The notes: generated from the letters alone by a model not told the origin. Numbered from the stretch's first letter, positions 10,169-44,386 are shown. The stretch: DNA of 50,128 nucleotides from an uncultured Candidatus Saccharibacteria bacterium (GCA_964563365.1 CAZLVR010000001.1:1-50128); one strand, 5' to 3'. Translations and numbers: made by a program.

Positions 10169-11932
10169 GTGATGATGGATAATCCGGAGCGAGTCACATA
10201 CTTCGCAGCAACCGATACGCGTGGCAGGCGCGCGCCGTTTGGCATCAAGCAGAAGGATCGTGCGCGCCACATGTACATCATCGGTAAGACGGGCATGGGC
10301 AAATCGACCCTACTTGAGAACATGGCCATCCAGGACATCCAGAACGGCGAAGGGCTCGGCTTCATCGACCCGCACGGCGGGACCGTCGACAAGCTCCTCG
10401 ACTACGTCCCGGAGCACCGCGTGAAGGACGTCGTGTATTTTGCGCCCTTCGATATGGACCATCCGATCGCGTTCAACGTGATGGAGGACGTGGGGTATGA
10501 CAAGCGCCACCTCGTTGTGTCGGGACTTATGGCTGCGTTCAAGAAGATCTGGGTCGACGCGTGGTCAGCGCGCATGGAGTACATCCTCACGAATACGCTC
10601 CTCGCGCTCCTTGAATACCCGGACGCGACCTTGCTCTCGGTGAACCGCATGTATACCGACAAGACGTTCCGGAAGAAAGTAGTTGAATGTGTGAAGGATC
10701 CCGTCGTGAAGGACTTCTGGACGAAGGAGTTCGCCACCTATACGGACCGCTATACTCAGGAGGCGACCCCTGCGATTCAGAACAAGATCGGTCAGTTCAC
10801 GAGCAATCCGCTCATAAGGAATATCATCGGCCAGCCGAAATCATCCTTCGATATCCGGCAGATGATGGACGATCGCAAGATCCTCATCATGAACTTGTCG
10901 AAAGGGCAGGTGGGCGACACAAACACCCAGCTCCTCGGCTCTATGCTCACGACGCGCATCTTCCTTGCTGCGATCAGCCGCGCCGACGCCTCCGCATCGG
11001 AGCTTGCCCGGCTCCCGAACTTCTTTTTCTACGTCGACGAGTTCCAAAACTTCGCGAACGAGACATTCTCGGAAATATTGTCCGAGGCCCGTAAATACAA
11101 GCTCAACCTTACCATCGCGCACCAGTACGTAGAGCAAATGGAGGAAGAAGTGGCGGCAGCCGTCTTCGGTAACGTTGGCACGACCGTCGCGTTCCGGGTG
11201 GGTCCCTTCGACGCTGAGAAGCTCGAGACTATTTTCACACCGGAGTTCACCCAGGAGGACCTCGTGAACCTCGGCTTCGCGCAGATCTACCTCTCCCTTA
11301 TGATTGACGGCATCGGCTCGCGGCCGTTCTCCGCGACCACGCTCCCGCCCATCCATCCGCCGAAGCGAAGCTTCCGCAAGGAAGTGATCGCGTCCTCCCG
11401 TGAGCATTTTGGCGCGCCGCGCGCGAAGATAGAGCAGATGATACTCGACGAGCTCTCCGCAGCGCAGGATGCGGCACTCGCGGAAGCTGCATCAAAGCCG
11501 CCAAGCGGCCCGGGCAAGAAAGGTCAGAAGGGTGGATTCGATCGTCCTAAGAAGCAGGGCTCCCCGCCGCCGCCCTCACGCGTCGAGCCGGGAGATCTGA
11601 GAGCCGCGATTGCCGCCCTGTCCGAGAAGACTGGTGCGGAGACTGCGAAGAAAGCGGAGGAGAAGCATGAGGCGATAGCGTCGGCGCTTACGGCGGTCGT
11701 GCCGCCGTCATCTGCGCCTGCGCATCCTGGTTCCGTCCAGGCGGCGCCACAGTCGGAGCGCCGCGCCGCGCCGCAGAAGCCCACGCCCACGAAGGAGCAT
11801 AGAGCGGAGACTCGGAAGCCTCGCGAGGAGCGGCAGGCTCCGCATGAGCCATCTTTGCCGAAGAGCGAGGAGAAAAAAGGGTTTGAGGTCCCGGAGGAGA
11901 GCCTTAAAGCCGTTTTCGAGGACCATATATAG
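10169..11932 (+). CDS. TraD/VirD4-like (type IV coupling-protein-like) P-loop NTPase, soluble, with a ~170-aa disordered Pro/Lys/Glu-rich C-terminal tail
   Basis: Walker A IIGKTGMGKSTLLENM, Walker B FFFYVDEFQNFA, and ARKYKLNLTIAHQYVEQM, which matches the T4CP all-alpha/Q-motif region. There is no N-terminal TM helix. The start is GTG 10169 or ATG 10172. Confidence 0.7.
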   Translation: MMMDNPERVTYFAATDTRGRRAPFGIKQKDRARHMYIIGKTGMGKSTLLENMAIQDIQNGEGLGFIDPHGGTVDKLLDYVPEHRVKDVVYFAPFDMDHPIAFNVMEDVGYDKRHLVVSGLMAAFKKIWVDAWSARMEYILTNTLLALLEYPDATLLSVNRMYTDKTFRKKVVECVKDPVVKDFWTKEFATYTDRYTQEATPAIQNKIGQFTSNPLIRNIIGQPKSSFDIRQMMDDRKILIMNLSKGQVGDTNTQLLGSMLTTRIFLAAISRADASASELARLPNFFFYVDEFQNFANETFSEILSEARKYKLNLTIAHQYVEQMEEEVAAAVFGNVGTTVAFRVGPFDAEKLETIFTPEFTQEDLVNLGFAQIYLSLMIDGIGSRPFSATTLPPIHPPKRSFRKEVIASSREHFGAPRAKIEQMILDELSAAQDAALAEAASKPPSGPGKKGQKGGFDRPKKQGSPPPPSRVEPGDLRAAIAALSEKTGAETAKKAEEKHEAIASALTAVVPPSSAPAHPGSVQAAPQSERRAAPQKPTPTKEHRAETRKPREERQAPHEPSLPKSEEKKGFEVPEESLKAVFEDHI

Positions 11933-19470: not shown

Positions 19471-20343
19471 ATGACTGGGCAGGGACCGCGTATCGGCTTT
19501 ATCGGGCAGGGGTGGATAGGGAAGAGCTACGCTGACGACTTTGAGCAGCGAGGCTTTTCGGTTGTTCGATACGCGCTTGAAGAGCCATACGCGAAGAACA
19601 AGGATCTTGTACCTGAGTGCGACATTGTGTTCATTGCGGTACCGACACCGACCCGTGCGAATGGATTTGATGATTCGATCGTCCGTGCGGTGCTTCCGCT
19701 TCTCGGGAAAGGGAAGACGGCAGTAATTAAGTCGACCCTGCTTCCAGGTACAACGGAAGCACTGCAAGCATCTTTTCCGGATATCTTCGTCCTTCATAGC
19801 CCTGAGTTTCTTCGAGAGAAGAGCGCCGCGCATGATGCGGCGAATCCACAGCGGAACCTGATTGGGATACCGGTTGATGATGCTCGGTATCGCGCGGCAG
19901 CTGACGCGGTCCTCTCGGTACTTCCGCCTGCGCCGTACGCGAAAGTCCTTCCTTCGCGAGCGGCGGAGCTAACGAAGTACGCGGGCAACGTCTTCCTCGC
20001 GACCAAGGTCGTCTTCGCGAACATGCTCTACGATCTTTCGTCCGCACTTGGCGCTAGGTATGACGATGTTCGAGAGGCGCTTTCCGCCGATCCGCGCATC
20101 GGGCCGTCGCATCTTGCTCCCGTGGACGCATCCGGGCATACGGACACGGCAGGCCGCGGCGCAGGTGGAGACTGCTTTATCAAGGATACGGAAGCGTTCC
20201 GGCAGCTCTACGGCGGGACGCTCGGGGATGCGGAAGGAGCAGAACTTCTCCGTGCGCTCGTGCGGAAGAACAACGCGCTCCTTACCGGGAGCGGGAAGGA
20301 CCTCGATATCCTGCGGGGCGTGTACGGAGAGACGCTTCCATGA
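19471..20343 (+). CDS. Short nucleotide-sugar dehydrogenase-like protein (UDP-glucose/GDP-mannose dehydrogenase family, lacking the C-terminal domain)
   Basis: RIGFIGQGWIGKS, FIAVPTPT, SPEFLREKSAAHD, and the catalytic-Cys block GAGGDCFIKD. At 290 aa it ends shortly after the Cys motif. Confidence 0.65.
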   Translation: MTGQGPRIGFIGQGWIGKSYADDFEQRGFSVVRYALEEPYAKNKDLVPECDIVFIAVPTPTRANGFDDSIVRAVLPLLGKGKTAVIKSTLLPGTTEALQASFPDIFVLHSPEFLREKSAAHDAANPQRNLIGIPVDDARYRAAADAVLSVLPPAPYAKVLPSRAAELTKYAGNVFLATKVVFANMLYDLSSALGARYDDVREALSADPRIGPSHLAPVDASGHTDTAGRGAGGDCFIKDTEAFRQLYGGTLGDAEGAELLRALVRKNNALLTGSGKDLDILRGVYGETLP

Positions 20344-22080: not shown

Positions 22081-22437
22081 ATGGGATTCGCCTTTCTCAC
22101 GCTTGCCTTTATCTGCAACGCAGCAGCAAACATCCTGCTGAAGCTCGCAGCGCTCCAGAAGTTTTCCTTCGCCGATGCACTGCGAGGCCAGTGGACACTT
22201 GCGACTCTTGAGGCAGGAGCTGCAGTCGGCCTCTTTGCATTGAACCTCGTGTTCTACTTGCTCGCGCTCGAGCGTATACCACTTTCCATCGGATATCCGA
22301 TTATGGTCGGAATGACCTTTTTCATTACGATCGGCGCGTCGCTTCTGCTCGGCGAGCGGATTAGCGCCTCGCATGCGGCCGGGATGGCACTCATCCTTCT
22401 CGGCATCCTTCTCATCGTTCGATTCTCCGGTTCCTAG
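22081..22437 (+). CDS. SMR/EamA-half 4-TM transporter (ArnE/ArnF-like putative lipid-linked sugar flippase)
   Basis: 118 aa with four hydrophobic helices, an N-terminus of LAFICNAAANILLKLAA, and the block PLSIGYPIMVG. Its stop overlaps the stop of the convergent RGP-like gene within CTAG (22434-22437). Confidence 0.6.
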   Translation: MGFAFLTLAFICNAAANILLKLAALQKFSFADALRGQWTLATLEAGAAVGLFALNLVFYLLALERIPLSIGYPIMVGMTFFITIGASLLLGERISASHAAGMALILLGILLIVRFSGS

Positions 22438-23534
22438 GAAATCGTTGCGAACACGTCGCGCCAGATGCGCATGCCAGTGGCATATCCCTCGATAAAGGCG
22501 CGCTCGTCCTCTTTTAACTTCTCATTCGAAAGGAGCGCGGCAGGAAGCGCATCTGCCAGCTCGGCATAACAGGTGCGATAGTCGGTACCAGACAAGGGAA
22601 GGGATGCGAGCGTTTCGACGAACTGGAGCGTGAGCGCGTGCCCGTAGCGTTCCATATCGAGGTCGCGCCAGTAATTGTGCGGATTACGCTCCTGGCGTAC
22701 CATCGGCTGCCCGTAAGCGATGAAGCCGCCGAGACGATCCGTTATTTTCTTCACTACGTAGGACGCCCAGATGTCGTCATAGCGGCCTACCTTAGGAGAG
22801 AGAAAATATGCCGGGATGACTTCGCGCGCAAGCGCGGTGTTCTGCGAGTTGAACGGCGTCCAGGTGCCTGGCGCGGGGGAAACGCGGTCCGCGCGCAGCA
22901 ATTTTGTCGCGTCGGTCGGCTCCGTGAGGTGATAGAGACGCTCGAGAGCGTCAACGTCTGGATCACCAAGCCATAGTCCTGCAGATGCGACCGGTGCGGC
23001 CCGCTTTTTCGATTCGGTCCAGACTTCCGGGATCCGTTTCTCGAGCGGGAAGCCGCGATGATAGAACGTGCGGCCATGTGCCTCTTCGAGGAGTGCACAA
23101 ACGTTTATCCAGCCGGTGGAGCTCGTCACTTCCGTGATTTCCTGTTCCGTGCCTATGCCGTGACCGCCGAGATAGTCTTCGGTTGCAAGAAAATTATCGT
23201 CATCGATGGTAGCGAGCCAGGGACACCCAGATTCGTATGCGAAGAGAATGCCTATGTTCCGACGCATGATGCAGTTCCACTGAATATGCTCACGCAATTC
23301 CGGGAAGCGAGACAAGTATTCTTCCTGGCGCTCCGGAGAAAAATACTCAACAGGGAACCCGCTCCGTTTTGCTAAATCCTCACAATAGGTCGCTGTCTCT
23401 GGTGGCGTCTTCTTATCGCCGACGACTATGAATACGATATCGCGACCGTATTTTCTGGCGTCCTGTGCATATGAATCAAGAAGCGTTGGGACAAAGATAG
23501 TCGTCGTGACTAGTGCGGTGCGGTCGGTGTACAT
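22434..23534 (-). CDS. Reversibly-glycosylated-polypeptide (RGP, GT75) family protein, UDP-arabinopyranose-mutase-like
   Basis: The blocks ATIDDDNF, HRGFPLEKR, AGLWLGDPDVDA and GRYDDIWASY parallel plant RGP TIDDDCF, RGYPFSLR, HGLWLNIPDYDA and GRYDDMWAGW (recalled from memory). I prefer ATG 23534, 1 nt after the upstream stop, to the track's TTG at 23570. Confidence 0.7.
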   Translation of the reverse strand: MYTDRTALVTTTIFVPTLLDSYAQDARKYGRDIVFIVVGDKKTPPETATYCEDLAKRSGFPVEYFSPERQEEYLSRFPELREHIQWNCIMRRNIGILFAYESGCPWLATIDDDNFLATEDYLGGHGIGTEQEITEVTSSTGWINVCALLEEAHGRTFYHRGFPLEKRIPEVWTESKKRAAPVASAGLWLGDPDVDALERLYHLTEPTDATKLLRADRVSPAPGTWTPFNSQNTALAREVIPAYFLSPKVGRYDDIWASYVVKKITDRLGGFIAYGQPMVRQERNPHNYWRDLDMERYGHALTLQFVETLASLPLSGTDYRTCYAELADALPAALLSNEKLKEDERAFIEGYATGMRIWRDVFATIS

Positions 23535-23535
23535 A

Positions 23536-24609
23536 TCAGTCCAGTATGAAGGGAAGATCACTACCGGCAAGTCGTTGTTTGGCTCCTTCTAGTACTTTCG
23601 TCAACCCCTCGTCAAGCGATATCTTTGGTGTCCAGCCAATCTCCTTCCGCATCTTTGTCGTGTCCGCGTACCGCGTCGCTACACCAACCGGCTTGTCCGT
23701 GAGCGGTCGAATCTCCGCTGTTCGGCCCGACAGCCTCAAGAACGTCTCGATAAGCTCGATGAATGACGTTGGCGTTCCGGTTCCGATATTTACGCCGGAG
23801 CCATCGGCGATACGGTCGAGAATGGGGAAGAATGCGCCAACACAATCATCGATATGTACGAAATCACGCCCCTGCAGTCCCGTGCCCCAGACTTCAATCG
23901 GATCATCGCCACGGGCAACCCGAAGCGCAATCGAGGGCGTGGGGTAGGTGAGATCTTGGTCTTCGCCGTAGCCAGAGAAGGGGCGTACACAGGCAATATG
24001 CACGCCATACCGCTCGTGCGCGAGCCTCGCAAGATATTCGCCAGTCAGCTTCGACCAGCCATAGGTCATATCCGGCGTTCCGAGCGATGAACGGAAATCG
24101 ATTGCATCCTCGACAAGCGCTTCCGCGCCGTCTGCGCCCTGGAGCCGGGTCGGGTACGCTGCTGAGGACGAGGCATAGAGCACTCGCTCGGCGCGCTTCG
24201 GATCCCGGGTAAGCCAATAGAAGAACATGGCGTCGATGCCGAGGTCCGCGGCGACCATGATAGGGTCTCCGTCGATAAGCGCGCGGCCGCCGACGATGGA
24301 AGCGAGATGGAACACGTCCCCGAATGCCTCCGGGCAGGGGAGGATTCCGCACCCTACGGCATGGTCATGGAAATAAGAGAGCGCGTCGGCAGTGATGAGT
24401 GTTATGCGTCCGCGCTCGGATTCGAATATGCGCGTTCCGTCCTGCGCTGATTCCTTCCAGGCCGGGGAAAGCCATCGGGACGGGTCCGCGCCGGTGGAGA
24501 GGTTGTCGACGATCCAGATATCGCCGTGCCCGCGTGCGACAAGCTCTCGTACGAGGTGCCGGCCGACGAAGCCGCAGCCGCCGGTCACGAGCGTGGGTTT
24601 GCCGTTCAT
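23536..24609 (-). CDS. NAD-dependent nucleotide-sugar epimerase/dehydratase (extended SDR)
   Basis: LVTGGCGFVGRHL, and the catalytic SSS...YGWSKLTGE (YxxxK). Confidence 0.85.
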   Translation of the reverse strand: MNGKPTLVTGGCGFVGRHLVRELVARGHGDIWIVDNLSTGADPSRWLSPAWKESAQDGTRIFESERGRITLITADALSYFHDHAVGCGILPCPEAFGDVFHLASIVGGRALIDGDPIMVAADLGIDAMFFYWLTRDPKRAERVLYASSSAAYPTRLQGADGAEALVEDAIDFRSSLGTPDMTYGWSKLTGEYLARLAHERYGVHIACVRPFSGYGEDQDLTYPTPSIALRVARGDDPIEVWGTGLQGRDFVHIDDCVGAFFPILDRIADGSGVNIGTGTPTSFIELIETFLRLSGRTAEIRPLTDKPVGVATRYADTTKMRKEIGWTPKISLDEGLTKVLEGAKQRLAGSDLPFILD

Positions 24610-25337
24610 GCGGCAAGTATACGGTCTCGCCCCATAAACCGCACCCGGAGGCCGACGCGGGCGTAATCAAGTATCTGCATGGCGGTCGCGTGGCTTCTCC
24701 CCTCGGTCCGCGCTTTCCAGGGGACCGGCACCTCGACGGCCCGGTATCCGAGCCGAAGCGGCTTCACGATGCATTCGAACAAGAACGGAAAGGCTGTCTC
24801 TTCCCAGCGGATACGCCGTAGCAGTTCGGTACGATATGCGCGATATCCGTATGTGAGATCTGTCAGCGGCGTCCGGTACAGGGTACGGAAGAACGCCTGG
24901 AACAGATAATTAAGTACGAGCTTTAGCAGGTTATAGCCCGCGAACCCGCCGCCGTTCTTCCAGCGAGTGGTCGCGGCTATGTCCGCTCCCGTATCGAGCG
25001 CGGCGAGCATGTCGGGAAGCGCGTCAGGGTCCGTCTCGAGGTCAGACGCCATAAGGACCGTGTATCCGCCTGACACTCGATCGAACGCGTCCTGTATGGC
25101 GCCGCCGAGCCGAGGCCGTACCTGATCGAACGCCTCTACCTGCGTGCCATAGCGTGCCTGAAGCTCTCGTATCATTGCGCGGCATCCTTCCGTCGTGAAC
25201 TTCGGCGAGGTGACGATGAGAAATCGCAGCTCATACGACGAAAGTAGGCGGGACGCCCGCTCGACCGTCTCCTTGAGCGAATAGGTCTCGTCGGTAGCGG
25301 GAAGGATAATGTGCACGCGATTCATGTGGCCCATCAT
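24606..25337 (-). CDS. GT2 polyprenyl-phosphate glycosyltransferase (DPM1/GtrB/ArnC-like)
   Basis: HIILPATDE, a DxD-type block VLMASDLETDP, and LTDLTYGYRAYR. It is 243 aa with no TM tail. Confidence 0.75.
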   Translation of the reverse strand: MMGHMNRVHIILPATDETYSLKETVERASRLLSSYELRFLIVTSPKFTTEGCRAMIRELQARYGTQVEAFDQVRPRLGGAIQDAFDRVSGGYTVLMASDLETDPDALPDMLAALDTGADIAATTRWKNGGGFAGYNLLKLVLNYLFQAFFRTLYRTPLTDLTYGYRAYRTELLRRIRWEETAFPFLFECIVKPLRLGYRAVEVPVPWKARTEGRSHATAMQILDYARVGLRVRFMGRDRILAA

Positions 25338-30287: not shown

Positions 30288-31503
30288 AAAGAAATCATTC
30301 GTTCCAGGGGAGGATTGGGTATGGTATGCGCCGTCCCGCTTCGATTCATACGGGGAGGAGGAGATACGTGCGGTCACTGAATCGCTTCGCGCCGGATGGC
30401 TTACGGCTGGTCCCCGCGCAGCGGAGTTCGAGAAGACAATCGCAAGCCTCTTCGGCAAGAAGCACGGCCTCTTCGTGAACTCAGGCTCGTCCGCCAACCT
30501 GCTTGCGCTCGAGGCGCTTAATTTGCCCCGCGGGTCAGAGGTCATCACGCCTGCCTGCAATTTCAATACCACCGTCGCGCCAATCGTCCAGAAAGGCCTC
30601 GTCCCGGTCTTCGTTGACGTGAAGGAAGGATTCTATACCCTCGACCCTGCAGAGCTTCCGAAGGCGCTCTCAAAGAAGACGCGTGCCATCTTCGTCCCGC
30701 ATCTTATTGGAAATCTGGTCGATCTACCGGCTATACGCGCCTTCGCGAAGAAGCACAAGCTTATCGTTATAGAAGACTCGTGCGACACCATCGGCGGTAC
30801 CTTCCGCGGCACAAAGACTGGCACCTATGCGGACGTGACGACCACAAGCTTCTACGCATCGCACCTGGTCACCGCGGGCGGCTCCGGCGGCATGGTCATG
30901 ATGAATGACCCGAAGCTGCGCGAGCGCGCACGCATCTTCCGGGACTGGGGACGCGGTATAACCAAGCATGACGACAAGATCCGCTCCCGCCTTACGTTCC
31001 TGATTGACGGAAAGCCGTACGACAGTGCGTTCGCGTTCGTTGAACAGGGCTATAATATGCGTCCGACCGAGATGCAGGCAGCGTTTGGACTCGAGCAGCT
31101 GAACCGTCTCCCGGGCTTCCTCAAGAAGCGGCAGGAGAACTATGAGGCGCTCCGCGAGTTCCTTGCCCGCCATGAGCAGCATTTCATACTGCCCGAGACC
31201 GAGCCGGGCGTGACGAGCAACTGGCTCGCGTTCCCGATCACGATACGCAAAGGCTCGCCATTAGAGAGAAACGCGCTCGCGCGACATCTCGAGGACAATC
31301 ATATCCAGACGCGCCCGCTTTTCTCCGGCAACATTACCCGGCATCCGGCGTATCGCGGCGTCGGCCGTGTTATCGGCAAGCTTCCGGTATCGAGCCACAT
31401 CTTCCGGAACTCGCTCCTCATCGGGGTGCATCACGGCATGACCCGGGAGATGCGCGAGCATGTCATGCGTACGATCGAATCGTTCATTGCGCGACACACA
31501 TAA
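30277..31503 (+). CDS. DegT/DnrJ/EryC1 family sugar 3-dehydratase-like enzyme (ColD/RfbH-like; His replaces the PLP lysine)
   Basis: Start at ATG 30277 (MAAKKKSFVPGEDW). VNSGSSANLLALEAL is present. SFYASHLVTAGGSGG carries His196 (codon 30862-30864) where aminotransferases have Lys. The FRDWGRG, GYNMRPTEMQAA and NWLAFPITI blocks parallel RfbH and ColD. Confidence 0.8.
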   Translation: MAAKKKSFVPGEDWVWYAPSRFDSYGEEEIRAVTESLRAGWLTAGPRAAEFEKTIASLFGKKHGLFVNSGSSANLLALEALNLPRGSEVITPACNFNTTVAPIVQKGLVPVFVDVKEGFYTLDPAELPKALSKKTRAIFVPHLIGNLVDLPAIRAFAKKHKLIVIEDSCDTIGGTFRGTKTGTYADVTTTSFYASHLVTAGGSGGMVMMNDPKLRERARIFRDWGRGITKHDDKIRSRLTFLIDGKPYDSAFAFVEQGYNMRPTEMQAAFGLEQLNRLPGFLKKRQENYEALREFLARHEQHFILPETEPGVTSNWLAFPITIRKGSPLERNALARHLEDNHIQTRPLFSGNITRHPAYRGVGRVIGKLPVSSHIFRNSLLIGVHHGMTREMREHVMRTIESFIARHT

Positions 31504-31507
31504 TGAT

Positions 31508-32431
31508 ATGGCGCGCGTCCTCCTCACCGGTGCAGGCGGATTCATCGGAGCCAATCTTGCGCGCGCGCTTCTTGCACGCGGCGATGAGGTGCATGCCTGC
31601 GTGCGTTCTCCACGCGACGCGTGGCGTCTCGCAGGTTTGGATAGGCGCCTCACGCTCCATACCACTGATTTCACCGATGCGGCAAGCATACGTTCTGTCG
31701 TTGCCGCTGTACGACCGGAGCTGGTGTACCATCTCGCGCATTACGGGGGGAATCGTGGCCAAGAAGATGCCTCGCTTATACGCCGCACCATCATCGACGG
31801 CACCGCGCACCTCTATGACGCGTGTGCCGAGTACGACCCCTTCATCGTCCATGCGGGCAGTTCCTCGGAATACGGTACGAAGACAGAGCCGATGCGCGAG
31901 GATATGCTGCCGGAGCCGACGACCGAATACGGCCTCGCGAAGCTCTGGGCGACGCTCCACGGAGAGCGATTGCGTCGCGAGATGGGCGCGAAGATCACGA
32001 CACTCCGCCTCTTTAGCGTCTACGGTCCGTATGAAGCAAGGACGCGCCTCATCCCGGCTACGACGCTCGCATTCCTGTCTGGAACCGTCCCGCCACTCTC
32101 GAACAAGGACACGGCACGTGATTTCGTGTATGTCGGAGATGTGTGCGATGCGTTTCTTCTCGCCCCCTCACGTCCGTGCGGGGTCTACAATATCGGAACT
32201 GGGATCGAATCGACTCTTGAACGTGCGGTCGAACTGATTCGGACCGAGGCCGGCTCCTCGCTTCCGCTTGCGTGGGGGACGATGGACGGTCGGGTGTTTG
32301 ATACGGCGCACTGGGTTGCGGATACGACGAAGACGTCCCGTGAGCTCGGATGGACGCCGTCGATCTCGCTTGCGGACGGCATACGCTCCACTGTCGCCTG
32401 GTTCACCGAACATCGGTCACTCTATGCGTAA
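31508..32431 (+). CDS. NAD(P)-dependent sugar epimerase/reductase (extended SDR)
   Basis: Start at ATG 31508 (MARVLLTGAGGFIGANL). Catalytic TEYGLAKLW (YxxxK). Confidence 0.85.
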   Translation: MARVLLTGAGGFIGANLARALLARGDEVHACVRSPRDAWRLAGLDRRLTLHTTDFTDAASIRSVVAAVRPELVYHLAHYGGNRGQEDASLIRRTIIDGTAHLYDACAEYDPFIVHAGSSSEYGTKTEPMREDMLPEPTTEYGLAKLWATLHGERLRREMGAKITTLRLFSVYGPYEARTRLIPATTLAFLSGTVPPLSNKDTARDFVYVGDVCDAFLLAPSRPCGVYNIGTGIESTLERAVELIRTEAGSSLPLAWGTMDGRVFDTAHWVADTTKTSRELGWTPSISLADGIRSTVAWFTEHRSLYA

Positions 32432-33242
32432 CAGCCTTTCATACGACAAACTGGCTGAGCGAGCGCTTGATGCGCGCCGGCGCTACCTTACTATCGCCGC
32501 GAACACGGGCGCGCTCCATATTGGTTCGTCGCTCTCGCAGATAGACATACTTGTTGCCCTCTATGCTGGGTTCTTGAACGTGTCGCCGGCGACCGTTACT
32601 GATCCTGCGCGCGATCGTTTCATTCTGAGCAAGGGGCATGCGGCGCTCGGCTACTATGTCGTGCTTGCGCAGAGTGGCTTTATTCCATGGGAAGAAGTCG
32701 AATCGTATGGGAAGGATGGGACGAAGCTCGCCGCTCATCCGGTTCTCGGCTCGGCCCCCGGAATCGAAGCCACGAGCGGATCGCTCGGCCACGGCCTTCC
32801 GATAGGTGTCGGGATGGCGCTTGCGGCGAAGCGGGCGAAGAATGGCGCGCGCGTTGTCGTGCTCCTGAGCGATGGCGAGTGCGATGAGGGCTCAAACTGG
32901 GAGGCGATACTGCTTGCGGGACACCTGAAGCTCGACAACCTGCTCGTTATCGTGGACTACAACAAGATCCAGTCATTCGGTAGGACCGAGGATGTGCTTG
33001 ATCTTGAACCGTTTGCGGATAAGTGGCGCGCGGCGCGCTTTGATGTGCAGGAAGTCGACGGCCATTCGTTTGAGGCGCTCATCCCTGCGCTCTCCGCCGT
33101 GCCGCGAGCCGCCGGCCCGAGTGTCATCATCGCGCATACGATAAAAGGGAAGGGCGTGCCATACATGGAGAACACGCTCGAATGGCATTATTTCAATCTG
33201 AAGCCGGAGAACCTCGATGAGGCGCTCGCATCCCTTATCTAG
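32424..33242 (+). CDS. Transketolase, N-terminal (ThDP-binding) subunit
   Basis: Start at ATG 32424 (MRNSLSYDKL). LSKGHAALGYY, GSLGHGLPIGVGMALA and LLSDGECDEGSNWEA. Confidence 0.85.
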   Translation: MRNSLSYDKLAERALDARRRYLTIAANTGALHIGSSLSQIDILVALYAGFLNVSPATVTDPARDRFILSKGHAALGYYVVLAQSGFIPWEEVESYGKDGTKLAAHPVLGSAPGIEATSGSLGHGLPIGVGMALAAKRAKNGARVVVLLSDGECDEGSNWEAILLAGHLKLDNLLVIVDYNKIQSFGRTEDVLDLEPFADKWRAARFDVQEVDGHSFEALIPALSAVPRAAGPSVIIAHTIKGKGVPYMENTLEWHYFNLKPENLDEALASLI

Positions 33243-33245: not shown

Positions 33246-34163
33246 ATGCGTACCGCTTTCGTAGAGACGCTGACCGAACTTGCTGAAAAGGACGAGCGCG
33301 TCTGGCTCGTGACCGGAGATCTCGGTTTTTCCGTATTCGAGGAGTTTGCGAAGCGCTTTCCGGATCGCTACTTGAATGTGGGAGTTGCGGAACAGGATAT
33401 GATTGGCGTCTCGGCCGGGCTCGCTCTCTCGGGCATGCGTCCGTTCGCGTATTCCATCTCGACGTTCGCGAGCATGCGAGCCTACGAGCAGATACGCAAT
33501 GATGTCTGCTATCAGAACCTCCCGGTCGTCATCGTGGGCGGCGGCAGTACGTTTAGTTATAGTACATTCGGCGCCACGCACATGCCGCTTGAGGACGTTG
33601 CTATCATGCGCGCGCTGCCAAACATGCGCGTCGCGGTTCCCGGCGACCCCGCAGAGGTGCGCGCGCTTCTTACCGCGCTCCATCAGGAGTCAGGGCCCGG
33701 GTATATGCGCATCGCGAAGAAGGGAGAGCCGGTTGTACATACGGATCAGAGCGGCATTACACTCGGCATGATGAGTCTCATGCGCGACGGATCGGACGGA
33801 ACCATCATGGTGTCGGGGCGGCAGCTGCCGAACGCGCTTGCGGCAGCAGACCTCCTCGCCGGGCGAGGGATCCAGCCGCGTGTCCTTTCGGCGCATACGG
33901 TGAAGCCATTCGATGCTGCTGCGACCGTGCGTGCCGCGAAGGAGACTGGAGCGATACTTACGGTCGAGGAACATTCGCGCGTCGGCGGTCTCGCATCTGC
34001 GGTTGCCGACGTGCTTGCCAGTGAGCGTCTCGCCGTCCCGTTCTCAGCGCTTGCTGTCTCAGACAGCTTCCCGAAAGGCGTAGGCAGTCAGGAGTATTTC
34101 CTCGCTGCGCACAGCCTCACAGCAGAGGGCGTCGCCGACGCGCTTGCTGCGTTGCGTACATGA
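33246..34163 (+). CDS. Transketolase, C-terminal (pyrimidine-binding) subunit
   Basis: VGVAEQDMIGVSAGLALSGMRPFAYSISTFA and the C-terminal block TVEEHSRVGGLASAV. Confidence 0.85.
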   Translation: MRTAFVETLTELAEKDERVWLVTGDLGFSVFEEFAKRFPDRYLNVGVAEQDMIGVSAGLALSGMRPFAYSISTFASMRAYEQIRNDVCYQNLPVVIVGGGSTFSYSTFGATHMPLEDVAIMRALPNMRVAVPGDPAEVRALLTALHQESGPGYMRIAKKGEPVVHTDQSGITLGMMSLMRDGSDGTIMVSGRQLPNALAAADLLAGRGIQPRVLSAHTVKPFDAAATVRAAKETGAILTVEEHSRVGGLASAVADVLASERLAVPFSALAVSDSFPKGVGSQEYFLAAHSLTAEGVADALAALRT

Positions 34164-35314: not shown

Positions 35315-36246
35315 CACCGACCTCTTGCGCGCTATGCGCGGCTACAGCGCTCTCCCCGGCCCGCGAGACGCATGTGGACGGAGACGTCGTATATACGCGC
35401 TATGAGTGCGGCTCCTGCGCCGGTGAGTTTTGGTGGCCGTTTCAGAATCCAGGTGCTGCGTGGTACGAACGCGATGAACGGTATGCGGACCGCAATCAGG
35501 ACCCGATCCTGACTGCGAACAAGAAGCAGACGGACGTCCTTGCGCATGCGGGCGCCGCGCAGGGTCCGCTCCTTGATGTCGGGTGCGGCGTCGGCAACTT
35601 TCTCGCGTATGCTGAACGCTGCGGCTGGGAAGCGTGGGGTATCGATTTCGATCATGACGCGATAGAGGCAGGGAAGCGGACGTTCGGGCTCACACGTCTC
35701 TCAGTCGATGATCTCTCCTCGTTCGCCGCTGCGCACCCGAACCTGCGTTTTTCCCTCATTACGTTTTTCGATGTGTTCGAGCATCTCGACAATCATGCGC
35801 AGTTCCTGGAACTTGCGAAGAGTCTCCTGATGCCGGGAGGTGCGATCGCGCTCTCGGTCCCGTACCGGCACGGCTGGCGGTTCCTCCTCCCGAATGATTT
35901 TCCTCCGCGACACCTGACGCGCTGGGATGAGCGTTCCCTTGAGATCATCCTCGCCCGCCACGGCTTTTCCGTGAGCTATATGAATCGTCTGCCAGCGAGC
36001 CTATACTACCTCGCCCTGAAGCTCAGGTTCCGGTTCGGGCGCTGGTCGTCTGTGGGGCTTGTCCGCAGGGCGGGCGGACCTGCGGCTTCGGGACGCATGT
36101 CGCTGCGCGGCCGCTTGGCTCGCGCGGCCGCAAAAGCGAAGGACAGCGTTCTGTTCGGGCTGCCCGCGCTCCTCATATACGTGGCGCTCCTACCGACGCG
36201 CGGGCGCTATACTGACCTTTATGCCGTTGCCCGACTCAATCCGTAA
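35311..36246 (+). CDS. Class I SAM-dependent methyltransferase with an N-terminal Cys4 zinc-ribbon-like segment
   Basis: CALC...CGSC at the N-terminus, then LLDVGCGVGNFL and FFDVFEHL. Confidence 0.75.
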   Translation: MTPTSCALCAATALSPARETHVDGDVVYTRYECGSCAGEFWWPFQNPGAAWYERDERYADRNQDPILTANKKQTDVLAHAGAAQGPLLDVGCGVGNFLAYAERCGWEAWGIDFDHDAIEAGKRTFGLTRLSVDDLSSFAAAHPNLRFSLITFFDVFEHLDNHAQFLELAKSLLMPGGAIALSVPYRHGWRFLLPNDFPPRHLTRWDERSLEIILARHGFSVSYMNRLPASLYYLALKLRFRFGRWSSVGLVRRAGGPAASGRMSLRGRLARAAAKAKDSVLFGLPALLIYVALLPTRGRYTDLYAVARLNP

Positions 36247-37792
36247 GACGCTGCGGAACTGGCCGTCCGTCCTCGTCGTCATCGCTTCTGCCGGACTAGG
36301 ACTCCTCCTCGTCACCCGGCCGCTCGAGTTCCTTCTCACGAACGTCGTTCCGGACGATGCGTTCTACTACTTCCAGATCGCGCGCAATATCGCGAGCGGA
36401 GCGGGACCAACCTTCGACGGGGTCCATCCGACGAACGGCTTCCACCCGCTCTGGACAGCGCTCCTCGTTCCTGTCTTTCATGCATTCTCGACGGGCGCCG
36501 TGCCAGACTTCATGCCGGTGCGGGTCGCGCTCCTTATATGCATCCTGTTCTTCGCTGCGGCCTCGGTGCTCGTCTTCTTCATCATCTCGCGGTATACGCA
36601 GAACCCCTGGATACGCGCGCTTGCGCTCGCGCTTTTTGCGCTCAATCCGTTCCTCCTCTTCGAGGCGTCCGGCGGTCTTGAAACGTCGCTCGCGCTCCTT
36701 GCCGCATCCGGATTCTTCCTCGCCGCGCTCTCGTATCCCGAGCAGCCCCGGCCTCGGCAGATGCTTCTGCTCGGCCTGCTTGGCGGAGTCATGATCCTCG
36801 CCCGTATCGACATGGCGTTCTATCTCGCCGCGTTCCTCCTCTGGCGCCTCGCGAAAGCGCCTTCGTACGCGAGGCTACGGGAAGTGCTTTTCACCGGTAT
36901 CATCGCGACCGCCGCGGTCTCGCCCTGGTTCCTGTGGAACCTCTCGCAGTTCGGCATGCTCCTTACCTCCGCGGCGAACGGGAACAGCATGGTATCGCAC
37001 GCGCTCATCGTACAGGACCATGGGACGAGCGCATTCCAGTTCGTGAAGGCGGTGCTCTACGGCATCGACTATCAGGTGCGCAGCCTTATCCTTCATACAG
37101 GGTCTCCCGCTATCGCCCTCTCGCTTCTCGGTGCCGCGCTCGCATTCTTCGCGCTCGGGCGCGCTCGCATCCCGCGGCTTGCCGAGACGACGGCGCTCCA
37201 TGCGCTCTTTTTCGGATTCGCCGCCCTGTTTCTCGTGAACGTCGGCATCCGTCTGTGGGCGCGCAGCTGGTATTTCGTCACGTTCGGCATCTTCGTCGCG
37301 CTTTTGTTCGTGTTCGTTGCTGAGTCGCTGCGGCCGCATCTTACGCGCCCGCGCATCGTTGCGGCCTGTTTCGCGCTCTTCGCTGTCTACGCATTCTCGG
37401 TCTCGTGGAGCAAGCATCTGCGGGATCAGTGGCCGACCGGCACTGAGCTCTATGCGGCTGCGCTCTGGCGCGATGCGCACCTGCCTCCCGATGCCGTCAC
37501 CGGCTCGTTCAATGCGGGGATAGAAGGGTATTTCTCGCGCGTGCGGGTCGTGAACCTCGACGGTCTCGTGAACAATTCTGCGTTCGAAGCGCTGCGCGAT
37601 CGTCGGCTGCTTTCCTATATGCGGGATGCCGGCATCACCGTATTCGTGGATTATGACCTCTACCTCGACTATCGCTACCGGAGCTTCTTCGAGGACCCGC
37701 AGTATCGTACGCACTTCACGCTGCTCGATAGGATATCGTTTACGAAGAACGAACGTTCCGGTGACGGCCTCGGTATCTACGAATTCAAATGA
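36221..37792 (+). CDS. Polytopic membrane protein, GT-C-fold glycosyltransferase-like (ArnT/PMT/arabinofuranosyltransferase-like)
   Basis: I chose ATG 36221 (MPLPDSIRKTL + TM helix). The protein has more than 10 predicted TM helices, a first-loop acidic motif NVVPDDAFYYFQIARNIASGAG, and a soluble C-terminal domain. Confidence 0.55.
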   Translation: MPLPDSIRKTLRNWPSVLVVIASAGLGLLLVTRPLEFLLTNVVPDDAFYYFQIARNIASGAGPTFDGVHPTNGFHPLWTALLVPVFHAFSTGAVPDFMPVRVALLICILFFAAASVLVFFIISRYTQNPWIRALALALFALNPFLLFEASGGLETSLALLAASGFFLAALSYPEQPRPRQMLLLGLLGGVMILARIDMAFYLAAFLLWRLAKAPSYARLREVLFTGIIATAAVSPWFLWNLSQFGMLLTSAANGNSMVSHALIVQDHGTSAFQFVKAVLYGIDYQVRSLILHTGSPAIALSLLGAALAFFALGRARIPRLAETTALHALFFGFAALFLVNVGIRLWARSWYFVTFGIFVALLFVFVAESLRPHLTRPRIVAACFALFAVYAFSVSWSKHLRDQWPTGTELYAAALWRDAHLPPDAVTGSFNAGIEGYFSRVRVVNLDGLVNNSAFEALRDRRLLSYMRDAGITVFVDYDLYLDYRYRSFFEDPQYRTHFTLLDRISFTKNERSGDGLGIYEFK

Positions 37793-38880
37793 TGGTCAAA
37801 CTGTTCGTATCACCGCGCATTCCGGGCGAACCTCTCTTGTTCTTAGTCGCCCATCATGAGGGAGTATTTGAGCCCGGAGGCACGCTCTTTACGAGCGTTC
37901 TGCCGAAGGATTTTGCGCCGCAGAGCTATCGGTTCGTCGACAGTCTGCATGACGCCGACTATGCGCTGTTCCCTCACGCCGTGAAGTCGCGGCACGGGCC
38001 GCTTATAAGGCACGCGGCGCGTGCACGGGAAGAGGCACATGCTGCCGGGAAACTTCTCATTGTCTATATCGGCGGCGATTTGTCTCACAACATTTTTCTC
38101 GACGGCGTAATCGTGCTCAAAGGATCTCAGTATCGGCACCTCCTGCGTTCGAACGAGATACTCGCGGTTCCGACGGCAGAAGATTTCGCTGAGTCGTTTC
38201 CTATCATACCTCGCGAGAAGTCGGACCGGCCGGTCGTCTCATTCTGCGGATGGGCGGGATTCCCGTCGCCGCAGGCGTACGTGAAATATGCGCTCCGCAA
38301 CCTAGCGCTCGACGTTGTGGCTTCTGTGCTCGATCCCCGGCTACGCGCCTTCAAGAAGGGGCTCTACTGGCGTCGCCGCGCGATTGCCGTGCTTGCGAAG
38401 GATCCCAGGATCGAAACGCGGTTCATCATACGGAAGACGTTCTCCGCAAGCGTGAAGACTATCAGTCTTGACCCACGAACGGCCCGTCGGGAATATGTCG
38501 AAAATATGCGACAGAGCGATTTCGTCCTTGCGCCGAAAGGCGACGGCAACTTCTCAGTCCGTTTCTACGAAGCGTTGTCTATGGGCAGGATACCGATCCT
38601 TATCGATACGGATGTAGTGCTGCCGCTCGAATCGTTCATCGACTATGATTCATTTATCCTGCGCGTCCCGGCGGAGGATCTCGCAAAGCTTCCTGACCTC
38701 GTATGCGCGCTCTACGAGAGGCTGACGCCCGAGGAATTCAGTGCTCGCCAGCAGGCGGCGCGCACTGCGTTTACGACCTATCTCCGGTACGACCGGTTCC
38801 TCGATACCGTATTTGAATGCGTCGTTCCTAAGATCGCGGCCCGGCTTGCGGCCGGCGCAGATACAGAACCGTCGCGATAA
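37789..38880 (+). CDS. Exostosin (GT47)-like glycosyltransferase
   Basis: SDFVLAPKGDGNFSVRFYEALSMGRIPILID matches the exostosin C-terminal signature (F.L.P.G.....R..EAL..G.IPV). Confidence 0.6.
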   Translation: MMVKLFVSPRIPGEPLLFLVAHHEGVFEPGGTLFTSVLPKDFAPQSYRFVDSLHDADYALFPHAVKSRHGPLIRHAARAREEAHAAGKLLIVYIGGDLSHNIFLDGVIVLKGSQYRHLLRSNEILAVPTAEDFAESFPIIPREKSDRPVVSFCGWAGFPSPQAYVKYALRNLALDVVASVLDPRLRAFKKGLYWRRRAIAVLAKDPRIETRFIIRKTFSASVKTISLDPRTARREYVENMRQSDFVLAPKGDGNFSVRFYEALSMGRIPILIDTDVVLPLESFIDYDSFILRVPAEDLAKLPDLVCALYERLTPEEFSARQQAARTAFTTYLRYDRFLDTVFECVVPKIAARLAAGADTEPSR

Positions 38881-40955: not shown

Positions 40956-43091
40956 ATGAAGGCAGCCCTGCGCTATACCGTTCTTGCGGTCCTCTTCCTT
41001 ATCCCGTTTATTCCGCTCTATGTCTCCGGTGATCAATATTTCCCCTTTATTACGGGGAAGGCATATCTATTCCGGATCCTGATAGAGATAGCTACAGGCG
41101 CCTACATCCTGCTTGCGCTTGCGGATCGTGCGTATCGTCCGCGCTTTTCATGGACGCTCGCACTCTATGGTCTATTCATTATCTGGATGTTCCTTGCCGA
41201 CCTGTTCGCCGTGAATCCGCATAAGGCGCTCTGGAGCAACTATGAGCGCATGGACGGATGGGTGGCGCTGATCCACGTCTTCCTCTTCTTCCTCGTCGCA
41301 GGCGCCGTTCTCTCCGCGGAGAAGCTCTGGAAGCGTTGGTGGCTCACTATGCTCGGTGCATCAGTACTCATCTCTCTCTACGGTTTGTGGCAAATGTTTG
41401 GACTCGCGACCATCCATCAGGGCGGCGCGCGTGCTGACGCGTCCTTCGGCAACGCGATCTACATGGCGGTGTATCTCATGTTCATGATCGGCATCGCGGT
41501 CTGGCAGGCGATCGAATCCCGTGGTTGGCTGCGCTACGCACTCATCGCACTTGCCATCGTTCAACTCATTCTCATGTTTGCTACGGCGACCCGTGGCGTC
41601 ATCCTCGGTTCTTTTGCCGCCGCTGGTCTTATTGCGCTTCTCCTTGCGCTTCGCGCGGGCGGCACAGTACGCAAAGCATCAATCGGCGTAGTGATCGCGC
41701 TCATAGCGCTTGCGGGCGCCTTCTTTCTTGCACGCGATACCGCATTCATCCGGAGCGAGCCGACGCTTGCGCGCGTTGCAAGCATCTTCGACGCAAACGA
41801 GCTGAAGGTTCGTTCAACCCTCTGGAGCATGGCGCTACAAGGTGCAGCCGCTCGGCCGGTCTTCGGCTGGGGGCAGGAAGGCTACAACTACGTCTTCAAT
41901 ACCTACTATCATCCGTCTCTCTACGGTCAGGAGCAATGGTTCGATCGCGCGCATAACACCTATCTTGACTGGCTCATAGCGGGCGGAGTTCCAGCGCTCA
42001 TCCTGTTCCTCGCGCTCCTTGGCGCTGCGGCGCGTGCGATTGCCGTGTCTGCTATGCCGCGCAGCGAGCGATACATCTTGCTCGGCATCTTGCTTGCGTA
42101 TGCGGTACAAGCGGTATCCGCGTTTGATAACCTCTTCTCCTATATATTGTTCGCCGCGATTCTCGCCATGGCGCATGACGCATCCGCGCGCCGCATGCCC
42201 GCTGTCGACGCGCCAGGCGAGGTGAAGGACACGGGACTCGGCGCAATCGCACTTCCTGCAGTCGGCGTTGTTACCGCTGCCGCGGTGTGGCTCGTGAACG
42301 TGCCAGGCATGCAGGGAGGTGCGGCACTTATACGCGCAGCGGGAAGCCAAGATCCGTCCGCGGGCCTTGCATATCTTCAGGCGGCGGTTGCGTCCGGGTC
42401 GTTCGCGACGCAGGAGATCGCGGAACAATCCGTCACGTTTGCTTCGAATGTTATGGCACAGCCTTCCATTCCAGTTGAAATGAAGCAAAAGGCGTTCGCG
42501 TTCGCGGCTGAACGTATGAACACAGAACTGACGCGCGCACCCCAGGATGCCCGTCTCCACCTCATGTACGGGCAGCTTCTTATTGTCGCCGGCGATTTCC
42601 CCGATGGCCTTAAGGAACTTTCTAGCGCTGTCACACTTTCGCCGAAAAAACAGACGCTCAGTATCCAGCGAGGAACCGCGAAGTGGCAGTCGGGAGATAA
42701 GGCGGGCGCTGCTGCGGATTTCGATGCAGCGTATCGACTCGATACGTCCTTTGAAACCGCCGCTCAGTACGCGGCCGCAGGGAAGCTCATCACAGGAGAT
42801 GTTGCTGGCGCTGATGCGATCCTTATGGCGCGGTTCGGCACGACCACGGTCGATTCCGATCCTCTTCGCTACGCGTATTACGACCTGAAGCTGTATGACC
42901 GGCTTATCGCATCGATGCAGGCGCACGCCGCGGCTGCGCCGGAAGATGTGCAGCGGCGGCTGCAGCTCGCACAGGCCTATCTACTTGTGGGGAACGTACC
43001 CGCCGCGCGCGCAGAGCTAGAGGCGACCATCGCGGCACATCCGGAAACTGCGAGCGCAGCAGCGGGTCTCCTTAGGCAAGCGGGACTCTAG
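40956..43091 (+). CDS. O-antigen ligase/polymerase-like (Wzy_C) membrane protein with a C-terminal TPR domain
   Basis: Multi-TM N-terminal two-thirds with RADASFGNAIYMAVYLMF and ATATRGVILG blocks. The C-terminal ~230 aa form Ala-rich TPR-like repeats. Confidence 0.8.
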   Translation: MKAALRYTVLAVLFLIPFIPLYVSGDQYFPFITGKAYLFRILIEIATGAYILLALADRAYRPRFSWTLALYGLFIIWMFLADLFAVNPHKALWSNYERMDGWVALIHVFLFFLVAGAVLSAEKLWKRWWLTMLGASVLISLYGLWQMFGLATIHQGGARADASFGNAIYMAVYLMFMIGIAVWQAIESRGWLRYALIALAIVQLILMFATATRGVILGSFAAAGLIALLLALRAGGTVRKASIGVVIALIALAGAFFLARDTAFIRSEPTLARVASIFDANELKVRSTLWSMALQGAAARPVFGWGQEGYNYVFNTYYHPSLYGQEQWFDRAHNTYLDWLIAGGVPALILFLALLGAAARAIAVSAMPRSERYILLGILLAYAVQAVSAFDNLFSYILFAAILAMAHDASARRMPAVDAPGEVKDTGLGAIALPAVGVVTAAAVWLVNVPGMQGGAALIRAAGSQDPSAGLAYLQAAVASGSFATQEIAEQSVTFASNVMAQPSIPVEMKQKAFAFAAERMNTELTRAPQDARLHLMYGQLLIVAGDFPDGLKELSSAVTLSPKKQTLSIQRGTAKWQSGDKAGAAADFDAAYRLDTSFETAAQYAAAGKLITGDVAGADAILMARFGTTTVDSDPLRYAYYDLKLYDRLIASMQAHAAAAPEDVQRRLQLAQAYLLVGNVPAARAELEATIAAHPETASAAAGLLRQAGL

Positions 43092-43093
43092 TA

Positions 43094-44113: not shown

Positions 44114-44251
44114 AAATATTTTTTCGAAAAACTTTTTTGCGCGAACTTATCCACAGGTCGCGCTTTTTTCGCGCAAAAATATTTTTTTCGCGCAATACTA
44201 ATCGATAGAACACTTCGCGTGAAGCTGTTTCAAAAAAATATTTTTGCGCGC
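44113..44251. promoter_or_regulatory. AT-rich gap with three AAAATATTTTT-type palindromic boxes flanked by GCGC
   Basis: aaaatatttttt (44113-44124), gcgcaaaaatatttttttcgcgc (44171-44193) and aaaaaaatatttttgcgcgc (44232-44251). The third box is essentially the inverse of the second. Confidence 0.4.
44147..44155 (+). other. Perfect DnaA-box consensus TTATCCACA
   Basis: An exact 9-mer, sitting in the loop of a gcgcga/tcgcgc hairpin (44139-44163) that is followed by TTTTTT. Confidence 0.3.
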
Positions 44252-44291
44252 AAGTGGGTCGATTATCACTCAACTAAATTCTCTTAGCACC

Positions 44292-44375: not shown

Positions 44376-44386
44376 CTTGCGCTACA

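Follow-up and report, generated by a model that had tools for sequence, protein, structure and literature searches.

What does a homologue of the plant reversibly glycosylated polypeptides (RGP), members of glycosyltransferase (GT) family 75, do among the glycan genes of an uncultured Candidatus Saccharibacteria bacterium? The gene in question, 22434..23534, lies on a stretch of 50,128 nt (GCA_964563365.1, CAZLVR010000001.1:1-50128) that represents a whole contig and is called the window; all coordinates follow the numbering of the full window. It is accompanied by genes for a family 2 glycosyltransferase (GT2), for a short-chain dehydrogenase/reductase (SDR) and for a membrane protein of the small multidrug resistance (SMR) type. 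On balance we lean towards the view that these genes, together with a more distant gene for a membrane glycosyltransferase of the GT-C fold, constitute a module of four to five genes that would make a lipid-linked furanose donor for glycosylation outside the cytoplasm.

The answer begins with the identity of the GT75 protein. Its product matched the Pfam profile RGP (PF03214) with an E value of 2.8e-11 and 43.6 bits (gathering cutoff 23.8) over residues 19-360, hence over nearly its full length. The best solved relative was MtdL, the chains of which were recovered by phmmer with an E value of 8e-47 over residues 6-365. An AlphaFold model computed with 43 homologues as input reached a predicted local distance difference test (pLDDT) score of 96.6, and it consists of a GT-A Rossmann-like N-terminal domain, a GT75-specific core and a C-terminal helical domain. 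In Foldseek comparisons this model was superposed on MtdL (7XPS) with a template modelling (TM) score of 0.88 at 33% identity and on the rice UDP-arabinopyranose mutase (UAM) UAM2 (8CID) with a TM score of 0.64 at 16% identity, while the matches below these two were generic GT-A enzymes with TM scores ≤0.41. The profile match, the similarity to MtdL and the superposition of the model together make membership in the GT75/RGP family secure at the level of sequence and predicted structure, in agreement with the initial annotation, which had named the profile search and the structural comparison as the checks to be made. The four sequence blocks on which that annotation was based, ATIDDDNF, HRGFPLEKR, AGLWLGDPDVDA and GRYDDIWASY, are all present in the translation; in MtdL they match, in this order, the DXD motif, the catalytic and autoglycosylated arginine and the regions around Asp195 and around Arg257/Asp260. 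A scan of the protein against NCBIfam gave no match, and an exact-sequence look-up of the cassette proteins returned neither names nor accessions.

The label "plant-type" that the gene had been given did not survive this comparison, since the bacterial MtdL is far closer than the plant enzyme in both identity and fold. Nor are bacterial RGP-based pathways without a characterised example, although none had been known to the initial annotation: MtdL from Marinactinospora thermotolerans acts in A201A biosynthesis, where it turns GDP-L-galactopyranose and GDP-L-fucopyranose into their furanose forms, and Hyg20 belongs to the hygromycin A pathway (PMC9937993). These two, both GDP-L-galactose/GDP-L-fucose pyranose-furanose mutases, are the characterised bacterial GT75 members, and crystal structures are available (7XPR, 7XPS and 7YUA; PMC9937993). 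The family of homologues is large: 2,532 clusters are recovered at E≤1e-3, and 356 remain at E≤1e-30.

The genes considered here are the following.

24606..25337, minus strand: GT2 glycosyltransferase of 243 aa, DPM1/ArnC/AglJ-like, first gene of a trio
23536..24609, minus strand: extended SDR of 357 aa, epimerase-type, second gene of the trio
22434..23534, minus strand: GT75/RGP-family homologue of nucleoside diphosphate (NDP)-pyranose/furanose mutases, 366 aa from the ATG, of the Ile87/Gln287 clade, third and last gene of the trio
22081..22437, plus strand: protein of the SMR/DMT type, 118 aa, four predicted transmembrane helices, putative flippase for a lipid-linked sugar, convergent with the GT75 gene
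36221..37792, plus strand: membrane glycosyltransferase of the GT-C fold, 523 aa, predicted user of the flipped lipid-linked donor

In the raw sequence, the stop of the GT2 gene and the start of the SDR gene overlap by 4 nt (ATGA), and the SDR and GT75 genes meet at TGA-T-ATG, which leaves a gap of 1 nt. The tetranucleotide CTAG at 22434..22437 is common to the convergent stops of the GT75 gene and the SMR gene, the stop of the latter being TAG. The open reading frame (ORF) listing and the raw sequence thus bore out all coordinates, the overlap, the gap and the common CTAG of the initial annotation.

Is this arrangement peculiar to the window? Contigs of homologues were looked up in five cases, and a scan covered one genome per species; together they yielded 80 loci (referred to by L numbers), which were analysed by local ORF calling and phmmer. 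The search pattern was a 13-sequence alignment of the Ile/Gln clade to which the window protein belongs (see below), and the sample of loci is biased toward that clade. Arrangements were counted in the raw phmmer table for the 79 species loci with a separately called GT75 gene: the order GT2>SDR>GT75 was found in 21, GT2>GT75 in 14 and SDR>GT75 in nine. In 41/79 loci the distance between GT75 and an orthologous GT2 gene was at most 5 kb, and in 35/79 the GT2 gene was directly upstream. The nearest relatives of the window locus are genomes of the Patescibacteria or candidate phyla radiation (CPR) labelled Paceibacterota or Kaiserbacteria. Besides Patescibacteria, the loci come from Acidobacteriota (Bryobacterales, Terriglobales), Nitrospinota, Nitrospirota and Proteobacteria, with further instances in Elusimicrobia, Chlamydiae, Planctomycetes, Chloroflexi and one archaeal metagenome-assembled genome (MAG). 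Natural fusions of SDR and GT75, with the SDR part at the N-terminus, occur in P0121 (742 aa) and at L015:5093-7255. This synteny across phyla and the fusions tie the GT75 enzyme to a polyprenyl-phosphate-type GT2 and an SDR, and the conservation, which includes GT-C orthologues beside the cassette, supports the proposed wiring well. A literature search turned up no publication that connects GT75 with CPR bacteria or with a polyprenyl-phosphate GT2.

Two further gene types were seen next to GT75 in this survey. P0123 (570 aa) is a fusion of GT75 and a methyltransferase. A family of about 316 aa without a Pfam match and with one C-terminal transmembrane helix adjoins GT75 in several loci (L023:7753-8703, L039, L040, L064, L066 and L080), and an FkbM methyltransferase gene often comes next; the family may represent a furanosyltransferase not yet classified.

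The partner proteins point to a lipid carrier. The GT2 protein matched Pfam Glycos_transf_2 (E 6.8e-14), and its only four sequence matches in the PDB were the dolichyl-phosphate (Dol-P) mannose synthase of P. furiosus (E 5.9e-14) and three ArnC sequences. Its NCBIfam matches, AglJ, Dol-P hexose transferase and ArnC, all remained below cutoff. By sequence similarity it would thus qualify as the polyprenyl-phosphate GT2 of a three-component (GtrB-type) system. The SMR protein reached the gathering cutoff of Pfam TMEM234 and fell just under those of EamA and Multi_Drug_Res; its best NCBIfam matches, both below cutoff, were ArnE (E 1.5e-8) and ArnF. An SMR homologue follows GT75 in the three closest relatives (L001/L009, L007 and L008) and is found nearby in L005 and L058, so that the position of the putative flippase noted in the window recurs in its closest relatives.

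For the protein encoded at 36221..37792, the match to Pfam PMT_2 was below threshold, its homologues contain PF13231 and are named, for instance, GT39 or ArnT-like, and a search of the family profile against PDB sequences gave nothing meaningful. The topology comprises about 9-10 transmembrane helices and a C-terminal alpha/beta domain, with a conserved pair Asp45-Asp46 just past the first transmembrane helix, of which Asp46 is invariant. The top Foldseek matches of its model (pLDDT 93.7) were GT-C enzymes throughout (STT3/AglB, DPY19, AftB, ArnT, ALG9/12, AftA and PglB), and the GT-C fold is confirmed at the level of the model. Orthologues directly adjoin the cassette in L009, L010, L014, L018, L024, L028 and L043, and one is also found in L006. 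Such orthologues or other GT-C-like proteins with multiple transmembrane helices adjoin the cassette in 19/31 loci automatically called as GT2-linked, and in Bryobacterales a different GT-C-like protein with ten transmembrane helices is encoded 5′ of GT2>GT75. The earlier suggestion that 36221..37792 is the likely downstream user gains from its fold and from these orthologues beside the cassette in at least seven other genomes. As to the co-occurrence that the initial annotation had asked about, the association with GT2 genes extends across phyla, GT-C genes often adjoin the cassette, and the association with SMR genes holds in close relatives only. The stop of the GT-C gene overlaps by 4 nt with 37789..38880, which encodes an exostosin/GT47-like protein (PF03016, E 4.8e-13); domains of this type are typical of eukaryotes, and in L005 and L024 an orthologue is likewise found with the GT-C gene.

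Can the GT75 protein of the window be expected to act as a mutase? Twenty residues with an assigned function in MtdL were located in the window protein (query), in the 120 homologues closest to it and in 150 sequences representing clusters at 50% identity. Sixteen of the twenty are conserved in the query, namely Thr13, Ile15, Asp40, Arg90, Asp109-111, Asn112, Arg159, Asp195, Ser228, Gln229, Arg257, Asp260, Arg289 and His292 (MtdL numbering). The DXD residues Asp111-113 and the catalytic Arg160 (query numbering) are invariant in the 120 homologues, and the sugar and phosphate ligands are kept in the query as Asp193, Ser230, Gln231, Arg251, Asp254, Arg283 and His286. Four residues are replaced, with Lys42 for Asn42, Cys88 for Ser86, Ile89 for Asp87 and Gln281 for His287. 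The query hence departs from the combination of Asp87 and Asn42 of the MtdL/Hyg20-type mutases, and the position of the Mn2+-coordinating His287 is occupied by Gln in 120/120 close homologues.

These replacements give some room to the explanation that the protein is not a mutase, and that it is instead a self-glycosylating or priming glycosyltransferase, or a dead scaffold like the plant protein AtRGP5. In MtdL, the exchanges D87N and D87S abolished activity, identifying Asp87 as essential, and the inactive AtRGP5 has lost His287 together with Arg257 (PMC9937993). Arg257, the second of the two residues lost in AtRGP5, is however retained in the query, and, counting it, the 14 mapped residues other than these positions are either retained or exchanged conservatively across phyla. 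Moreover, Gln and Ile or Val are themselves conserved and covary, as in a re-tuned site rather than in decay: among the 150 representatives, Asp at position 87 occurs with His at 287, and Ile, Val, Phe or Gly with Gln. In a neighbour-joining tree the Asp/His and Ile/Gln states fall into separate groups, with MtdL in the former and the query in the latter. All GT75 proteins from the collected loci that were fully aligned at both positions combine Ile, Val or Leu with Gln, except for one with Asp87 and one with His287. The synteny with sugar-nucleotide pathways is tight, and the carbonyl oxygen of Gln can ligate Mg2+ or Mn2+, which also speaks against a dead enzyme. We regard a non-mutase function as highly improbable. 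As judged from alignment and tree, the query belongs to a large, conserved and uncharacterised GT75 clade, the pocket of which appears re-tuned rather than degraded.

If a mutase, which nucleotide-sugar would it use? Active plant enzymes carry Pro13, Asp42, Asp86 and Ser87 and act on UDP-sugars, and the pairs Thr13 and Ser86 (MtdL, GDP) versus Pro and Asp (plant, UDP) mark the key positions for base selectivity (PMC9937993). At the four plant positions the query carries Thr, Lys, Cys and Ile. It contains the residues of the guanine-selective pocket as Thr11, Asp40 and Cys88, equivalent to Thr13, Asp40 and position 86 of MtdL, and position 86 is Ser or Cys in 117/120 close homologues.

The genomic context of the clade points in the same direction. 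A bona fide GDP-mannose 3,5-epimerase (GME) gene adjoins a GT75 gene of the same clade in eight loci (L004, L027, L035, L036, L039, L053, L069 and L080), which include GT2>GT75>GME arrangements. The GME of L004 matched the Arabidopsis enzyme (2C59) with an E value of 1e-95 and retains the cysteine in SSSACMYP. The product of GME is GDP-L-galactose, a substrate of MtdL. In ten other loci (L063, L065, L073-L075, L079, L081, L083, L084 and L086), an Ile/Gln GT75 gene resides inside a GDP-heptose operon with the order GMD-like dehydratase, GmhA, HddA-like kinase, HddC-GmhB fusion, GT75, RmlD-like reductase and cupin (e.g. L081:6091-12330); GmhA of these operons scored above the NCBIfam cutoff. Their hosts are represented by gut, rumen and marine MAGs (Elusimicrobia, Succinivibrio, Akkermansia-labelled, Gastranaerophilales, Alpha- and Gammaproteobacteria). 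In Campylobacter jejuni the step from heptopyranose to heptofuranose has been assigned to FADH2-dependent mutases (PMC10680097). By analogy, we predict that the GT75 enzyme of the heptose operons is a flavin-independent GDP-heptofuranose mutase.

The MtdL-like base pocket, the GME-linked loci and the GDP-heptose operons together favour GDP over UDP-arabinose, and the conversion of UDP-arabinopyranose to UDP-arabinofuranose considered in the initial annotation is disfavoured by the MtdL-like Thr13 and Ser/Cys86 and by the linkage of the clade to GME or the GDP-heptose pathway. Judging from these sequence features, a GDP-hexose of the L-galacto type or a close epimer is the most likely substrate. 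In the nearest relatives, a gene coding for a fusion of 266-272 aa adjoins the GT2 gene (L009:7242-8060, also L006, L012, L013 and L014); it joins a nucleotidyltransferase resembling RfaE domain II or cytidylyltransferases to a cupin of the mannose-6-phosphate isomerase type and is absent from the window. This fusion may be an unusual bifunctional enzyme forming NDP-mannose, and it gives a weak hint at a mannose origin of the sugar.

The SDR partner is less easily reconciled with a GDP-sugar. Its motifs comprise the NAD motif GGCGFVG, SSSAAYP and the Tyr/Lys pair in YGWSK, constituting a Ser/Tyr/Lys triad, and it matched the Pfam profiles Epimerase and GDP_Man_Dehyd. Its orthologues form a tight family across phyla with 47-70% identity. 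A profile of 28 orthologues gave 124-113 bits against UDP-Glc and UDP-GlcA 4-epimerases in the PDB and 110 bits against GME. Cys145 and Lys217 of GME correspond to the invariant Ala150 and Tyr222 in SDRs of the window type. We rejected the possibility that the SDR is a GME orthologue, as the equivalent of Cys145 is Ala and identity to a true GME neighbour is only 26%. In NCBIfam there was no equivalog, the sole full-length match being heptose_epim (ADP-heptose 6-epimerase). An ADP-heptose route, which was considered in view of this HldD-like match and the RfaE-II-like domain in the neighbouring gene of the relatives, found no support; the heptose operons are of the HddC (GDP) type.

A UDP-sugar route is therefore a real rival. 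In such a route the SDR would be a 4-epimerase converting UDP-Xyl to UDP-L-Arap or UDP-Glc to UDP-Galp, GT75 would form UDP-L-Araf or UDP-D-Galf, and the furanose would be placed on polyprenyl phosphate. The top PDB relatives of the SDR are enzymes of this kind and the cysteine used by GME for epimerisation is missing, yet GME nearly equals the 4-epimerases in the profile comparison. A gene resembling UDP-Glc dehydrogenase (19471..20343) lies near the cassette and has an orthologue near the cassette of L010, but the C-terminal domain that binds the nucleotide-sugar is missing from its product. Where a cassette has no SDR, UDP-Gal from housekeeping metabolism could serve. No gene of the window scored as UDP-xylose synthase, the other window SDRs being nearest to 4,6-dehydratases, with 31460..32431 scanned against Pfam only. 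Since the base-selectivity residues are MtdL-like rather than plant-like and the same clade is tied to GME in eight loci and to GDP-heptose operons in ten, we consider the UDP route unlikely overall. The product of 19471..20343 is itself a member of the UDP-Glc/GDP-Man dehydrogenase family that keeps the catalytic cysteine motif GGxCxxKD, and it is without the entire C-terminal domain and without part of the N-terminal domain; full-length relatives abut GT75 in L004, L037 and L040.

The order of the first two steps deserves separate attention. GT75 could act on a housekeeping NDP-pyranose, with the SDR following the mutase or taking the lipid-linked sugar as its substrate and thereby diversifying the furanose. 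ORF13 of Citrobacter youngae O2 and DprE2 are precedents, and in the pentofuranose three-component system a GalE-like SDR has been proposed to act on undP-Ribf (PMC11127046). The 14 SDR-less GT2>GT75 cassettes indicate that the core reaction can proceed without the SDR, and ADP-heptose 6-epimerase, the full-length NCBIfam match of the SDR, acts on an exocyclic carbon. Against this order, GME, an enzyme acting on the nucleotide-sugar before the mutase, replaces the SDR beside GT2 and GT75 in sister cassettes; the SDR-GT75 fusions fit best to consecutive soluble steps, and the SDR displays no features of membrane association. We regard the altered order as improbable, somewhat more so than the UDP route.

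Returning to the reading that the cassette supplies a lipid-linked furanose, the enzymatic activities, the nucleotide, the sugar, the order of SDR and mutase, the role of the flippase and the acceptor are those we infer from sequence, and the following course is envisaged. The NAD-dependent SDR would epimerise a housekeeping nucleotide-hexose, likeliest GDP-mannose or a close relative, to an epimer of the L-galacto type. GT75, of which the family is established, would then contract the pyranose to the furanose on the nucleotide by Arg160-mediated, divalent-metal-dependent chemistry as solved for MtdL, and Ile89 and Gln281 in the pocket may confer a different preference for the sugar side chain, for the metal, or both. 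As homology and synteny suggest, the DPM1/ArnC-like GT2, a soluble enzyme, would transfer the furanose to polyprenyl phosphate, and the ArnE-like SMR protein with its four transmembrane helices would flip the glycolipid. Finally, outside the membrane, the GT-C enzyme, with its modelled fold, would pass the furanose on to either a surface glycan or a protein. The cassette itself may be an ancient, horizontally mobile unit, given its occurrence in Patescibacteria, Acidobacteriota, Nitrospinota, Nitrospirota, Proteobacteria and other phyla.

A more specific version we put forward tentatively, as falling just short of an even chance. It holds that GT75 enzymes of the Ile87/Gln287 type together with a soluble DPM1-like GT2 constitute an unrecognised, widespread GDP-sugar route to lipid-phosphate-linked hexofuranose or heptofuranose, for example polyprenyl-P-L-galactofuranose, which would feed GT-C enzymes; the exchange of His for Gln could have re-tuned the metal site, and the same clade would provide flavin-independent GDP-heptofuranose in gut bacteria.

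Several observations weigh against these proposals. At the active site, the query has Gln in place of the Mn ligand His287 and Ile in place of the Asp87 that is essential in MtdL, and the activity of the Ile/Gln clade is predicted from homology. The window SDR is not a GME, its closest solved relatives being UDP-sugar 4-epimerases by a narrow margin, and the truncated UDP-Glc-dehydrogenase-like gene (19471..20343, 290 aa) is located 2 kb from the cassette. Among the window ORFs scanned there were no genes for the synthesis of GDP-mannose or GDP-heptose. Prediction of transmembrane segments found none in the GT2 protein, which hence has no membrane anchor. The SMR gene travels with the cassette only in close relatives, and the GT-C gene of the window is 12 kb away.

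How does the cassette relate to known systems? With MtdL and Hyg20 the window enzyme shares family, fold, DXD motif, catalytic Arg, sugar and phosphate ligands and the base-pocket residues Thr13, Asp40 and Ser/Cys86, and sister loci pair GT75 with GME, the maker of the MtdL substrate. It differs in belonging to another clade (Asp87 to Ile, His287 to Gln and Asn42 to Lys), in its context of envelope-glycan genes (polyprenyl-P GT2, SMR and GT-C) rather than an antibiotic cluster, and in having a partner SDR other than GME. With the plant RGP/UAM proteins, represented by rice UAM2, it has PF03214 and the DXD and catalytic Arg motifs in common, whereas identity, structural similarity and the residues at the selectivity positions set the two apart, as described above.

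The GtrA/GtrB/Gtr(type) and ArnC/ArnE-F/ArnT systems resemble the cassette in their polyprenyl-phosphate GT2, small flippase candidate with four transmembrane helices and GT-C transferase. However, they carry pyranoses (Glc, Ara4N) and have no mutase, and their GT2 enzymes possess C-terminal transmembrane helices, which the window GT2 lacks. A cytoplasmic lipid-phosphate furanose donor, an optional SDR, a flippase and an outside GT-C enzyme are also features of ORF12-15 of Citrobacter youngae O1/O2 (GT136; PMC11127046) and of the mycobacterial decaprenyl-P-arabinose pathway, and the O2 system has a GalE-like SDR as well (PMC11127046). In contrast to the cassette, for which a donor derived from a nucleotide-sugar via a GT75 mutase and a GtrB/DPM1-type GT2 is predicted, these systems obtain pentose donors from phosphoribosyl pyrophosphate (PRPP) by a UbiA-type phosphoribosyl synthase and a phosphatase. 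The scanned ORFs of the window contained no domain of either a UbiA-type polyprenyl phosphoribose synthase or a phosphoribose phosphatase. The flavoenzymes UGM/Glf and the GDP-6-deoxy-heptopyranose mutases of C. jejuni HS:10 and HS:41 (PMC10680097) catalyse the same net reaction, and the flavin mutase of C. jejuni sits in the same kind of GDP-heptose operon as the Ile/Gln GT75 in gut and rumen MAGs. They are FADH2-dependent and of unrelated fold, unlike the metal-dependent GT-A enzymes of GT75. The combination of a GT75 mutase with a glycosylation system of three components is thus a new combination of known parts, not a categorically new system.

Some features of the surrounding DNA were recorded in addition. 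At the upstream edge of the glycan island of 30 kb, a TrwB/VirD4-like type IV coupling-protein ATPase is encoded (10169..11932). The GC content amounts to 0.51-0.56 around 26-30 kb and to ~0.60 elsewhere in the window, which hints that the island was perhaps acquired as a mosaic. Genes for a Wzy_C-TPR protein (O-antigen-ligase-like), MurB and SecA (40956..47002) are separated from the cassette by ~15 kb with extra glycan genes between, and in the relatives compared (L001, L005, L006 and L007) they adjoin it directly. A tightly coupled glycan operon contains a split transketolase (TK), with the N-terminal thiamine diphosphate domain encoded at 32268..33242 and the Pyr and C-terminal domains at 33246..34163, in the order DegT aminotransferase, SDR (31460..32431), TK-N, TK-C, GT4, methyltransferase, GT-C and GT47. 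The split enzyme may serve to branch sugars or to transfer two-carbon units, or it may supply sedoheptulose-7-P.

Furanose sugars are frequent antigens and drug targets. To our knowledge they are absent from mammals, and all routes known to us that deliver furanoses outside the membrane start from PRPP. If the cassette works as predicted, a nucleotide-sugar-based route to lipid-linked furanose donors would be added as the counterpart of the PRPP-based pentofuranose systems, and the enzymology of GT75, so far that of plants and of two antibiotic pathways, would come to include the envelope glycans of many uncultured phyla. The Ile/Gln combination would then be a second sequence-recognisable type of GT75 active site, possibly with a different metal or sugar specificity. 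The analysis yields a practical rule by which about 2,500 protein clusters currently listed as hypothetical can be annotated, as well as candidate enzymes for the chemoenzymatic synthesis of GDP-furanoses. The cassette is widespread and wholly uncharacterised, and it lends itself to direct tests with soluble enzymes.

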